A stretch of 64,000 nucleotides of DNA, from positions 30,380,001 through 30,444,000 of the forward strand of contig OX597814.1 of NCBI GenBank assembly GCA_951406725.2, read 5' to 3'. This document shows, one piece after another, positions 4,793 to 62,462 of this stretch (within the stretch, counting starts at the first letter, position 1; each line of letters opens with the position of its first letter). Below the pieces are notes generated by a model, which worked only from the letters and a program-made list of their open reading frames with translations, made no database searches and was not told the origin of the DNA. The stretch is from Octopus vulgaris (taxonomy: Eukaryota). The position numbers and the translations under genes are program-made.

Positions 4793-5299
4793 CTGCGCCT
4801 ATTAGATCTGCAATGGCTCCATAACAACCGTCTTGGCAATAACCTTGGAGTCCTAGTAATCCATTGCAGCACTTAGCGTACCTAGAACTAAACCCCCATA
4901 GTTTGTGTGTGTGTGTGTGTGTGTGTGTGTGTGTGTATATATATATTAGAAGAAATGAGGTAATCAGAAGATCGGATGGTTCATATTTACAGATATTTAT
5001 ATATATATTACATTTTTTACATATATATCATATCATTCAGATCATTAGCGCTTTCTCCCATTATATATATATTATATATATTATATATATATATATATAT
5101 ATATATACATACATACACATATATATATATTCTCTTTGATGTCAACAAATGAGATATTGTTGTTCTGCTTTCTCTTCTTCAGTTCTCTTTTCCTTTTGTT
5201 TACTTCTGATGCCTCGTCCCTTATGGGACTTTAATCAAGCCAGTGATTTACAGACAAGTCCACAGAATGGACACGAGAGAAAATTGTTATACAAAGCGG

Positions 5300-5622
5300 T
5301 GAGGGCGCGTGGCTTAGTGGTTAGGGCATTCGGCTCATGATTGTAAGGTTGTGAGTTCGATTCCCGGCGACACGTTGTGTCCTTGAGCAAGACATTTTAT
5401 TTTACGTTGCTCCAGTCCAAAATGAGTAGTACTTGTATTTCAAAAAAGGGCCAGCCTTGTCACACTCTGTATCACGCTGAATCTCTTTGCGAACTGTGCG
5501 TTAAGGGTACACGTGTCTGTGGAGTGCTCAGACACTTACACGTTAATTTCACGAGCAAACTGTTTCGGTGATCGTATCAGCTGGGACCATCGTCGTCGTA
5601 ACCGACGGAGTGCTCCTTTTTT
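5300..5622 (+). mobile_element. tRNA-derived SINE, family D
   Basis: TGGCTTAGTGG A box, GAGTTCGATTCC B box, CAT at anticodon-like position, GTGTCCTTGAGCAAGACA core; TSD TTATAC(A/T)AAGCGG. Confidence 0.88.
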
Positions 5623-5735
5623 TTATACTAAGCGGATGGAATGTTCGAATGAGAATTTGTCTTTATTCTTAGCTTTATAAACTGATCCAGACAGCTTAAG
5701 TCATGTATTTTGTATGGCTTAATAAGCAAGCAAAT

Positions 5736-6064
5736 CTAAAAAGACTCCGCCGGTTACGACGACGAGGGTCCCAGCTGATACGATCAACGGAACAGCTTGC
5801 TCGTGAAATTAACGTGCAAATGGCTGAGCACTCCACAGACACGTGTACCCTTAACGTAGTTCTCGGGGATAATCAGCGTGACACAGAGAGTGACAAGGCC
5901 AGCCCTTTGAAATACAAGTACAACTCATTTTTGCCAGCTGAGTGGACTGGAGCAACGTGAAATAAAGTGTCTTGCTCAAGGACACAACGCGTCGCCGGGA
6001 ATCGAACTCACAACCTTACGATCATGAGCCGAATGCCCTAACCACTAAGCCACGCGCCCTCACC
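5736..6064 (-). mobile_element. tRNA-derived SINE, family D
   Basis: Reverse-complement copy of 5300-5622; TSD AAGCAAGCAAAT at 5724-5735 and 6065-6076. Confidence 0.9.
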
Positions 6065-6082
6065 AAGCAAGCAAATACACCT

Positions 6083-6345
6083 CTATTCATTGCGGTTCAA
6101 TGCTTCTGGAGGAATCATTGCCATTTTGAGCCCTTCCTTATATCCTGTGCTTTTTCTTCCTTCATGGGACTGGCTAAACATAAGGACGTTTGCAATTCTG
6201 TTGTCACCCATTCCGACGGCATGACCAATCCATTCTACTCGTAACTGGGATTGCAAAGGAAATTCTTCAATGCCATCAAATATATTTTTAGAGATTTGGT
6301 CCATATTCGAAATTCTGTTATTCAGGCTGTATTCACGTACGCGCT
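6083..6345 (-). pseudogene. RTE-clade LINE ORF C-terminal fragment
   Basis: Translation IEEFPLQSQLRVEWIGHAVGMGDNRIANVLMFSQSHEGRKSTG resembles the RTE QLRWAGHVVRM.D.R.PK..L..EL..G.R..G motif. Confidence 0.75.
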
Positions 6346-6594
6346 TGTATGTATGTATGTATGTATGTATGTATGTATGTATGTATGTATGTACGTACGT
6401 ATGTATGTATGTATGTATGTATGTATGTATGTATGTATGTATGTATGTTTGTATGTATGTATGTATGTATGTATGTATGTATGTATGCATGTATGTATTC
6501 ATGCATGTATATATGTGTATATAAATACATACTTACACACACACAAACACACACACACACACACACACACACACACACACACACACATATATAT

Positions 6595-58735: not shown

Positions 58736-59003
58736 TAGTAAGATAAGGATTCAGATAGAATCAGTTACTTGAAAAAATACGCACCAGGTAGGGCTGGATA
58801 AATCTGTGATTCCGGCCTATGATTGATAAGTATCAAATAGGATAGTCCGGCTGTGTACACAGACAAAACCAACCCTATTTAGCGCCTAGGAGGGGATGGT
58901 CCAAACCACGCGTTACGTTGAATTGTACGTTGTTGGTATGCTCTAGTCTGTCCGACAAGTTGTAAATTCCCTTGGCGTATTATAATCAAATGAATAATAA
59001 CAT

Positions 59004-59418
59004 AGGCACAGGAATGGCTGTGTGGTAAGAAGCTTGCTTCCCAACCACATAGTTCCAGGTTCAGTCGCATTGCGTGGCACCTTGGGCAAGTGTCTTCTAC
59101 TATAGCCTCGGACCGACCAAAGTCTTGTGAGTCGATTTGGTAGATGGAAACTGAGAGAAGCCCGTCGTATATACATACATATATATATATATATATATAT
59201 ATATATATATATCAATGTTTGTGTGTCTGTGTTTGTCCCACCACCGTCGCTTGAAAACCGATGTTGGTGTTTCCGTCCCCGTAACTTACCGGTTCGGCAA
59301 AAGAGACCGATAGGACAAGTACTGGGCTTACATAGAATAAGTTCTGGGGTCGATTTGTTTGACTGAAGACAGTGCTCCAGCATGGCTGCAGTCAAATGAC
59401 TGAAACAAGTAAAAAAAA
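59004..59418 (+). mobile_element. SINE family A
   Basis: Full-length, more diverged copy. Confidence 0.9.
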
Positions 59419-60850
59419 TACAATGGATAATTGTCAGCTCATTACAGCTGTTTCTGACGCATTTTTAAATAGAAGAATGAGAACATTACTTCATTACAAT
59501 GATTACGGTTTTTTAAAATGAAGTGATGTTCTCATCCTGTGTGTGTGTGTGTGAGTCTGTAAGTATGCGCGCGCGTGTATATATATTTTTGGTACATGGA
59601 AACTGATAGAAGCATGTCGTGTATATATATATATATATATATATATATATGAATGTTTGTGTGTCTGTCTTTGTCCCACTACCGTCGCTTGACTATATAT
59701 ATATATATATATATATATGGTGAGCGCTTATAAAGTGATACATACATCCACACACACACATATACATTATATATCACGTGATCACGTGACCGACCAGGCC
59801 ATCAGATGTTGCTACACATCGCTGGTCACAATGCGCTTCGCATTGTTTTATCCTTCAATGACGTCACCCCGCTGGCTAAGCGAGCAGGCCAACATTATAT
59901 ATACATATATATATATATCACCTCCACACCACACATTTCTCAACACGCCAACCTCTTCCGCCAAAAGATAAACCTACAACCCTCGAGAACTAATTTGATT
60001 TTATTCCCAGCCCACTCCCTATCAAGTCGTGTACTAGCCATTTATAAATTTATAAATATCTCGATATTCTAATCTTTTCTCTTTTTCTTACAATGAATAT
60101 ATCTGACGTAAGCTTTCTGAACTTTCACTTCTCTTCCGTATTGACGTACTTTCATTCACAAACGCTTTTTTCCCCTCCACTTCATACCTTTTACTATGCT
60201 TATGCAATCACCTATTTGTTTTTTTTTTTTTGTTATCCTAATCTATTTAGAAATAGTCTTTGAAAACTATCTACTGTTATATATTTCTCACCTATTTTGA
60301 GCTTACACGCACACACACACACACACACACACACACACACACACAAACACACAAACACATGCACGCACGCACGCACCACGCACACACACACACACATTAG
60401 CAAGCAGAAAAGCTAGCTCGCAACATCAAGTCTTCAAAAATTTCCTGAAGAAGAGTCTAAACACCAAAATATCGAATTACAAGGTATAAGTACATGTAAT
60501 TAACTGATTTCTTATAACACGCGTTGTTTTGGTTTTTCAAAATTATAAAACTTTTAAAATCTTTATCAGACACTGTTTCATGTAAACTATACAACCCTAT
60601 ATATATATATATATATATATATATATATATATATATATATATATATATATATATATATATATATATATATAGTACGTTTAAATATTTGTTGTGCAAGATT
60701 TTTTATGTGAAGTCGTGTGTTGAAACAGATATTGTTATATTTCGGAATGGTCATTTTGTCAGTTTAGCCAATAAAAACACACGCACTATATATTTGGTGT
60801 TACTTTGCTTCAGTGTTATTTATTTTTTACATTAATCTTAATCTTATTTC

Positions 60851-60895
60851 GGCCAGAGTTCTTTCGTCACACTCCTGTGACCGCATCAGTGGTCC
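60851..60895 (-). ncRNA. Hammerhead motif with core substitution
   Basis: ggacca CTGATGC g gtcaca-ggag-tgtgac GAAA gaac TC tggcc: 6-bp stem II, A9 changed to C. Confidence 0.55.
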
Positions 60896-62124
60896 TTTGT
60901 TTTCTTCTCACTTATTTGTGTCTCTCCTTACTAACCGTCAGCCATTTTGTATTTCTATTGTATGTCTTCATTTGCGCATGCTTATATCTCTATGTGCGTT
61001 TATGTTTATTTAGTGTGTGTATGTGGGGGATGCCTGTAATATTTGTATCTTCTGTTTATATATGTTCATGTAATTTGTATTTTGTATTTTGTTTTTGTTT
61101 TTGTTTTTGTTTATTCTTATTTTGTTCATGTGTTTACATCCACCCATTATTATCATTACATATGCTTGTATGTATGTATGTATGTATGTATGTATGTATG
61201 TATGTATGTATGTATGTATGTATGTATGTATGTATAACAACAATACTAGTAATAATAATAATAATATATATATATATAGTGTAATAAATAAAATATATGC
61301 ATACATACAAGCATATATGTATGTACCTACATCTACATGTATATATACATGCATATATAAATATATATACGTGAGTACAGGACACCACAAATAGACGTAG
61401 AACTCAACGAGAAACGAAAACGGAAAAGCCATTTTTTTTACAACAGAAAAACAAAGTTCAGGACATACTACACAAGGAAAAATCCCCAATCATCAGCTGT
61501 CGCTAGTTAGACTCAAGCGTGTTTCGAAGGCAAGACAGGACACGACTCGTCAAAACTAGGCCTTCCTGCGAGGGAATTAAAATAAAATTCCCTCGCAGAG
61601 TAAAAACAAGCAAGAAAAAATGTAACACAAACAGGACGTAACAATAAAACTGCACAATAAAATACAAGATAAAAATACATGTACAAGAAAATACAAAACG
61701 AGAAATAAAAAGAATATACAATACGAGAAATCAAAATAAACAAGAAAACAAACGAGAAAAACAAACGAAAAGGCCTTTTTTCTGGCTTAGACGGAGGATG
61801 TCCTAGCAGCGCATGGAAACATGACTTTACAGTTTGAAAGCAGCGTGCAAAAGGAAGTGGTTTAGGCTAGCAGTGACAAAGAGGAGGAAGAGTGAGAGAG
61901 AGAGAGAGATAGCGGAAGACACGCGGCTGAGAGAGAGCTGAGGAAGAGTGAGAGGGAGAGAGAGTGGGGAAGGTAAAGCAAAGGGAGAGAATTTCGCGTC
62001 ATAATTATATATAAAACAGTACTGGGAGGATAATAATTAAATAATAAGGGTAGAAATTGATATTAATCAATTAAACCAGTGGCTTAGCATATTTAAAAAA
62101 ATCTGAAGAATAAAAATTGTGTTA

Positions 62125-62462
62125 CATACAAAATTTAGAAGAATGACCACTAAAGTGGACACCCTATATGCTAAACATAGACGTCAAATCGCCATTACCT
62201 CGAAGAATGTGTTCTCAAGAAAAATCTCAGCAAAAAAACAAAATGTAAAAATAAGCAAGACAAATGAAAATATACGAAATATAAAACGATTACCTATGTA
62301 CCATTTGATTTCGTATATTTTCATTTTTCTTGCTTATTTTTACATTTTGGTTTGTTGCTGAGATTTTTCTCGAGAACACATTCTTCGTGGTAATGGCGAT
62401 TTTATGTCAATGTTTATCATATAGGGTGTCCACTTTAGAGGTCATTCCTCTAAATTTTGTAC
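62125..62462. repeat. Fold-back inverted repeat (~155 bp arms) abutting (TG)n
   Basis: TACAAAATTTAGA..AAAGTGGACACCCTATATG..ATACGAAAT / ATTTCGTAT..CATATAGGGTGTCCACTTT..TCTAAATTTTGTA. Confidence 0.9.

Follow-up and report, generated by a model that had tools for sequence, protein, structure and literature searches.

Minimal hammerhead motifs in an octopus locus are probably the 3' ends of truncated Penelope-like elements

Why does one stretch of octopus DNA carry several hammerhead ribozyme motifs in sequences that are otherwise unrelated to each other? The stretch comprises 64,000 nucleotides of Octopus vulgaris (assembly GCA_951406725.2, contig OX597814.1, positions 30,380,001 to 30,444,000 of the forward strand). 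We call this whole stretch the window and number positions from its first letter. It has 37% GC and is rich in microsatellites. An earlier note, made from the letters alone, had described a dispersed family of type I hammerheads in the window and attributed them to non-coding, retrozyme-like lineages derived from Penelope-like elements (PLEs). Our analysis supports the PLE origin, the minimal type of the hammerheads and the presence of fold-backs. We consider it probable that the motifs are hammerheads near the 3' ends of PLEs, left as short 5'-truncated insertions with inverted duplicates in (TA)n. They belong to several families, one of which, family B, is likely to be of the Hydra clade.

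We tested each motif for the hammerhead core (C3-A9, G12-A14, A15.1-U16.1 and H17, with three helices in type I order), and five motifs at four loci pass. The first is in the family A insertion (8153-8573, minus strand), where the hammerhead runs from the core at 8350 to the cut site at 8314 and is followed by a 161-nt 3' segment. It has an extra A after A9, a G10.1-C11.1 pair and a weak helix I. The last 137 nt of the insertion are repeated inverted at 8436-8573, and the DNA on both sides is TA-rich. The family B fold-back (11890-12087) holds two head-to-head hammerheads, 11951-11913 on the minus strand and 11962-12000 on the plus strand, in which a U.U closes helix II and the minus copy has a 7-bp helix I. 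Its 3' end is either short, at 11890/12022, or extended by a tail of 65 nt as far as 12087, and this tail includes at 12041 a motif common to the tails of Hydra elements. The family C stub (12100-12244, minus strand) lies between (TA)n runs. Its hammerhead (12230-12179) passes with the core variant U4C, and has a purine-purine opposition at the base of helix II and a loopless palindromic helix III. The fifth motif (27243-27317, plus strand, core 27251-27309) was found with a descriptor that permits a long helix III. It has a 3-bp helix II, a helix III with a 26-nt loop, and a helix I that starts with a mismatch followed by seven pairs. A sixth, hammerhead-like motif (60851-60895, minus strand) has a 6-bp helix II and a bulged helix I, shares the G10.1-C11.1 pair with family A and the 27251 motif, and fails at A9, which is replaced by C, so that it enters the descriptor matches only if C is permitted at position 9. 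The five motifs that the earlier note called good thus all fit the layout, and four of them have an intact core. Its density of one motif per 5 kb needs the doubtful motifs as well; what can be supported is five intact cores at four loci in 64 kb.

Could these motifs be chance matches in AT-rich repeats such as miniature inverted-repeat transposable elements (MITEs)? Our strict descriptor, which permits one extra base near helix II and one defect in helix I, has four matches in the window (8350 and 11951 on the minus strand, 11962 on the plus strand and 12226 on the minus strand). The means in shuffled sequences are 0.03 (global) and 0.13 (300-nt blocks), with a maximum of one match in 40 shuffles of each kind. 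When a long helix III is also permitted, 27251 and 55909 are added, resulting in six matches relative to shuffle means of 0.18 and 0.17 (maximum of one, 60 shuffles each). Strict descriptors therefore give an excess of about 30-fold, although they were relaxed after the motifs had been seen, and the earliest strict version, with no extra base around helix II, matched none. Looser searches are at chance level, with 17 matches for the loose descriptors (9.9-12.2 in shuffles) and seven for 3' half motifs as a class (5.2-5.4). Comparison with shuffled sequence and with Rfam models had been proposed as checks in the earlier note. The first favours the strictly defined motifs and not the loose and half motifs. 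The second gave no family at gathering score, and the E-value scans of the window returned matches to microRNA-type hairpins and one weak match to HH10 (15.3 bits, for a threshold of 75). Nor do the motifs stand out in minimum-energy folding, with unremarkable energies for 10 of 11. We rejected 55909 as a chance match: it lies in a terminal-inverted-repeat family, and the motif is missing from the sister copy at 19327-19429. As the descriptors had been tuned with the motifs in view, we added a covariance model built from hammerheads outside the window (see below).

The arrangement of the motifs gives a second line of evidence. In a self-comparison of the window, 8350 (arms 8153-8289 and 8436-8573), 11951/11962, 33730 and 43647 each lie in a local inverted repeat, with inverted copies at 8153-8573, 11890-12023, 33487-34036 and 43454-43803. 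This confirms the fold-backs that had been noted at 8309, 11906/11958 and 43631. What is duplicated in each of them is the stretch that follows the ribozyme downstream, and the copies are head-to-head, with their 3' ends directed outward to TA-rich sequence. An inverted 5'-truncated copy at the 5' side has been published for PLEs (PMC8557442), and, judged by sequence, the fold-backs of the window have this layout. Two of them lend support to motifs that are damaged, since these lie inside the fold-backs. The fold-back at 33487-34036 (minus strand, arms 33487-33640 and 33884-34036) holds a decayed hammerhead at 33730-33676, which is absent from the earlier note. In the one at 43454-43803 (plus strand), the direct arm begins with a 3' half motif with a palindromic helix III (43647-43661, the 43631 motif of the earlier note), which we infer to be a truncation within the ribozyme. 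The association with microsatellites holds mainly for one type. A (TA)n run is found within 300 nt of 9 of the 14 candidate loci, relative to 30% of background positions (p=0.009), whereas microsatellites of any type, as originally proposed, give weak evidence (12 of 14 loci versus 62% of the background, p=0.05).

If the motifs derive from PLEs, are there traces of the proteins of these elements? The earlier note had found no open reading frame (ORF) for a PLE reverse transcriptase (RT) or GIY-YIG nuclease in the window. A search with short motifs now reveals a broken C-terminal ORF of a Hydra-clade PLE at 50898-51700 on the plus strand, with the pre-linker motif, the cysteine linker and the GIY-YIG endonuclease, interrupted by stops and frameshifts. 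Its last open frame has 62 relatives at E-values up to 0.001, which map back to 51221-51647 (tblastn E 2e-10). By eye, these relatives resemble the C-terminus of the Hydra-clade elements in the supplement of PMC8557442, and one of them (P0018) matches the C-terminus of Hydra-2_Amil. Pfam profiles detected neither RT nor GIY-YIG in the 381 unmasked frames of at least 45 amino acids, and missed the remnant as well; of 12 relatives of the remnant, the GIY-YIG profile matched only one, and weakly. A word-indexed homologue search with the remnant and protein-guided scans of viral contigs found nothing.

An alignment of 33 relatives retrieved 12 loci from four bacterial metagenome assemblies, which we read as animal host DNA. 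Their contigs (L014-L025) hold animal-type Hydra retroelements, hammerheads and (TA)n in four assemblies filed as bacterial genomes, which suggests host contamination of these assemblies. In 11 of the 12 loci, a full hammerhead lies 100-221 nt downstream of the Hydra endonuclease on the same strand, and in the twelfth the contig ends inside a hammerhead; several of the loci are copies of the same families, so that these are not 12 independent cases. The linkage of hammerhead and endonuclease ORF is thus observed in these outside loci. One of them (L016) has the fold-back layout of the window: an inverted hammerhead stub, which breaks off 15 nt before the core of its ribozyme, is joined to a truncated endonuclease ORF, a second hammerhead and a terminal (TA)n. 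Another (L025) has head-to-head stubs like those of family B.

The covariance model was made from 11 hammerheads of the outside loci, after two of 13 were dropped for misalignment. Both copies of family B rank first in the window (25.4 and 24.3 bits); 70 kb of control DNA, which was metagenome sequence from pattern-scan matches, scored 12.4 bits at best. The third-best match, at 56309-56348 on the minus strand (17.2 bits), has a good helix I and almost no helix II, and its sister at 732-845 (72% similar) has no hammerhead layout. The 27251 and 60889 motifs are absent from the match list. Family B also shares with several outside loci a 10-base tail motif, noticed after the fact, that occurs only once in the window, and a helix II closed by U.U is frequent among the Hydra elements tabulated in PMC8557442. 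Because of its ribozyme type, tail motif, U.U closing and score with the outside model, family B is likely Hydra-type. Pattern scans gave no match in viral contigs and 13 in metagenomes, none with a hammerhead context.

To assess how repeated these elements are, we compared public contigs with a single stretch of the window, 11896-12585, in 4 of 24 runs, from four studies. In these runs, 10,516, 1,788, 509 and 88 contigs aligned, almost none of them on the unique flank. The summed depth in run X1 is 1e5-1.9e6 over 11896-12240 and 0-360 over 12264-12585, and in run X10 it reaches 89,000 on the families and 3.9 on the flank. Contig depth is here no copy number; as an order of magnitude, families B and C may have some ten thousand copies. 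The alignments resolve two repeated families, B (about 11957-12087, plus sense) and C (about 12100-12244, minus sense). Family B has 3' ends at about 12022 or 12087, 65 nt apart and both followed by TA, and an optional 3' tail has been published for PLEs (PMC8557442, PMC11167929). Among copies of family C, differences at a level of at least 5% affect 0 of the 28 positions of the core, helix I and helix III and 19 of the 99 others (p=0.007), a figure to which alignment bias could contribute. Changes at 12196 and 12198, in proximal helix II, preserve pairing, and a near-universal change at 12215 restores a pair lost in the window copy. The excess of strict matches, the core invariance of family C and the match of an independent model to family B refute the chance explanation for B and C. 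For the motifs taken together we regard it as extremely improbable, even if loose and half motifs behave as chance matches do.

The length and very high repetition of B and C raise a different question: are they true non-autonomous elements of ~150 nt, self-transcribed from just upstream of the hammerhead and copied in trans by PLE proteins? Family C is ~145 nt long with (TA)n on both sides, 14 of its 32 displayed pieces end at 12240-12244, and at one joint another C copy meets a TA run four letters past 12242. Retrozyme monomers derived from Penelope terminal repeats in vertebrates (preprint 10.64898/2026.07.22.740005) would be a parallel for such short elements. However, the displayed pieces necessarily end where the window copy ends, and some contigs extend B and C in the upstream direction: in run X17, four contigs have the same sequence ahead of C (agreement 0.93), which reaches 1,351 nt in a contig of 1,443 nt, and runs X10 and X15 agree on a continuation upstream of B. 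Furthermore, equally short stubs lie beside ORF-bearing Hydra copies in the outside loci. We therefore find the idea of independent short elements unlikely. The upstream continuations, together with the endonuclease remnant, also leave the non-coding lineages of the earlier note unsupported. A bolder version appears quite improbable to us. In it, octopod hammerhead elements of ~150 nt that lack an ORF would have been multiplied in trans to about ten thousand copies. The variant ribozyme of one of them (C4 core, purine-purine helix II base, helix III without a loop) would be under selection for activity and would cleave host transcripts as a dimer, and the fold-back copies would be a source of perfect double-stranded RNA for editing or silencing.

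Alternatively, the elements could be non-LTR (long terminal repeat) retrozymes, replicating via circular RNA cut from tandem arrays. Such retrozymes, with type I hammerheads, occur in a mollusc, Mytilus (PMC7229834), and sequence of the families is present in two runs (X15 and X17) that are only guessed to be RNA and consist of contigs, in which RNA ends are not visible. Yet no motif of the window lies within a tandem array, and the ribozymes are of the minimal, Penelope type, which PMC7229834 separates from the hammerheads of retrozymes. We also left uncounted some back-joints to 12089-12092 that would resemble tandem copies, as both of their ends fall in TA runs and they may be alignment artefacts. 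The elements in the window are not tandem retrozymes, the label retrozyme-like fails because no motif is in a tandem monomer array, and replication through circular RNA is a very unlikely explanation.

Several results weigh against the attribution of the motifs to truncated PLEs. Our analysis of the window joined none of its families physically to an RT or endonuclease ORF. The remnant at 50898-51700 has no recognisable hammerhead downstream and is joined to none of the motifs in the window, and none of these matches the published hammerhead of Hydra-1_Obim. With the outside model, families C and A score no better than chance (8.8 and 8.6 bits). Family B has only a weak match to a profile built from the 3' end sequences of Hydra elements (E 2.6), and its shared tail motif was recognised post hoc. 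The helix changes within family C are one-sided only, two-sided ones being seen only among the outside loci. Finally, in three of the four runs just 0-1% of the aligned contigs pass into unlike sequence, which fits a defined short element equally well.

How would 5'-truncated PLEs with the observed structure arise? For one element studied in vitro, AT-rich DNA is nicked, reverse transcription has two internal start sites, by which the optional tail is defined, and the hammerhead is protein-assisted and dispensable for insertion (PMC11167929). Inferring from published work, the GIY-YIG nuclease of the element would nick (TA)n DNA, and reverse transcription would have two alternative start sites downstream of the hammerhead, from which the short and the tailed end result. 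It would usually halt shortly past the ribozyme, and a second truncated copy laid down inverted would produce the head-to-head hairpins. Hydra elements are known to target (TA)n, with one known in O. bimaculoides (PMC8557442). For the ribozyme in a parent transcript, slow cleavage is predicted, either in a dimer or assisted by protein. Dimer cleavage has been reported for minimal hammerheads of the PLE type (PMC4209133, PMC6765202), and the predicted greater stability of helix III between two molecules of A, B or C (intermolecular duplexes of -7 to -13 kcal/mol) agrees with it; helix III is self-palindromic in C and in the 43647, 59454 and 5055 motifs. For the window motifs, self-cleavage is a prediction only. 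The mirror copy in family B is no dimer partner, because it is antisense on any single transcript. Most genomic stubs would be inert, and a transcript of the B fold-back is predicted to form a single hairpin of 66 pairs (-111 kcal/mol), which would hide the ribozyme. Annotation assigns 6.83% of the O. vulgaris genome to PLEs (PMC13282606, whose repeat library for this species has 190 families), enough to explain the density of motifs, and a rough sum of the stubs in the window is 5%. Since PLEs are annotated to this extent and dispersed single minimal hammerheads were described in 2014, the suggestion of a ribozyme load that annotation would miss is weak.

The remaining motifs of the window are of lower quality, and the decayed and half motifs of the earlier note fared unevenly. 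Besides 43631, the motifs at 24097 and 61503, both read from the sequence and matched by no descriptor, are plausible as decayed copies. The first (24097-24133, plus strand) is a probable decayed minimal hammerhead with one inserted base in the core, a damaged helix II and a 4-bp helix I, and the second (61503-61558, minus strand) is a possible one with at least two lesions. The 3' half motifs at 59443-59454 (minus strand, helix III as in family C) and 5040-5055 (minus strand, adjoining (TA)n) are unproven, their class being at chance level. We rejected 6990, which belongs to another fold-back family and lacks helix I; 44138 and 44286 are unsupported as hammerheads.

Other fold-backs were also observed. 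The one at 62127-62461, in which inspection found no hammerhead, shares with 43454-43803 an 11-base terminal word adjoining TA, and may be a MITE or the stub of a related family. The palindrome at 6588-7078 has a Penelope-like layout: its ends are nested and increase in length, and another copy lies on the far side of (TA)41. It has no recognisable hammerhead. A near-perfect palindrome of 870 bp at 56940-57809 (arms 96% identical) has inner telomere-like tracts of (CCCTAA)n/(TTAGGG)n, and related pieces at 19327-19474 and 55912-56013. At 5298-6064, a head-to-tail inverted pair of short interspersed element (SINE)-like copies, presumably of a tRNA-like SINE, makes a fold-back of 770 bp.

The window also contains remains of other transposable elements. 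A broken piggyBac-like transposase remnant lies at 9247-11329 on the minus strand (Pfam matches DDE_Tnp_1_7 and zf-Tnp_2). C-terminal zinc-knuckle fragments of a long interspersed element, which we take to be R4/Dong-like, are found at 24405-24743 (minus), 19514-19843 (plus) and 2056-2238 (plus), with zf-RVT matches for the first and the third; the 24097 motif is on the opposite strand from the first and seems a separate insertion. Short mariner-like elements with terminal inverted repeats of 36-39 bp and transposase fragments are at 25399-25969 and 28826-29415. The commonest repeat of the window has a reading frame whose only candidate match is a protein of Argonauta hians, at 83% over 66% of the query length.

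How do these elements compare with known systems? One close likeness is with the minimal PLE hammerheads of PMC4209133, which describes thousands of them dispersed per animal genome, mostly single and some in opposite-strand pairs. Those of the window share the CUGANGA box with an extra base near helix II (as is already known for this ribozyme type), the short palindromic helix III, a helix I of 4-7 bp, AU-rich flanks, the dispersal as single copies of many unrelated families and the opposite-strand pairs within a few hundred bases. They depart from the consensus in that a U.U (family B) or a purine-purine opposition (family C) replaces G10.1-C11.1, and in the C4 of family C. U10.1-U11.1 and U4C are known natural variants (PMC3088659), and the purine-purine opposition is absent among the motifs listed for Hydra elements in PMC8557442. 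One of the supplement files of PMC4209133 has no cephalopod term. The available text and supplement of the O. vulgaris repeat paper (PMC13282606) have no mention of ribozyme or hammerhead, nor the text of retrozyme, and literature searches, whose reach excluded Repbase and Dfam, found no description of these octopod families.

The non-LTR retrozymes of animals (PMC7229834; Li et al. 2026 preprint) likewise consist of short repeats that have a type I hammerhead and no ORF. Their presumed source is the terminal repeats of Penelope elements, and solo monomers occur. They are defined by tandem monomers and circular RNA (PMC7229834), whereas the window has inverted pairs and optional tails and lacks tandem arrays. 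The Hydra clade is a further close system. It includes Hydra-1_Obim of O. bimaculoides, which Craig et al. list as (TA)n-targeting and hammerhead-bearing (PMC8557442), and shares with the window the hammerhead near the 3' end, the (TA)n targets and, in the remnant at 50898-51700, the same endonuclease. With family B it also shares the U.U-closed helix II, a helix III of 3-4 bp and a similar tail motif. The hammerhead sequences of the window differ from that of Hydra-1_Obim, B was observed here with no ORF joined to it, and A and C score only at chance level with the model of the Hydra loci. The general pattern is known, and our analysis adds very abundant octopod families to it. Family C is of minor structural interest for the variant base of its helix II. 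With thousands of naturally occurring variants, a single motif would provide a ready test set for understanding why PLEs keep a hammerhead that is dispensable for insertion in vitro.

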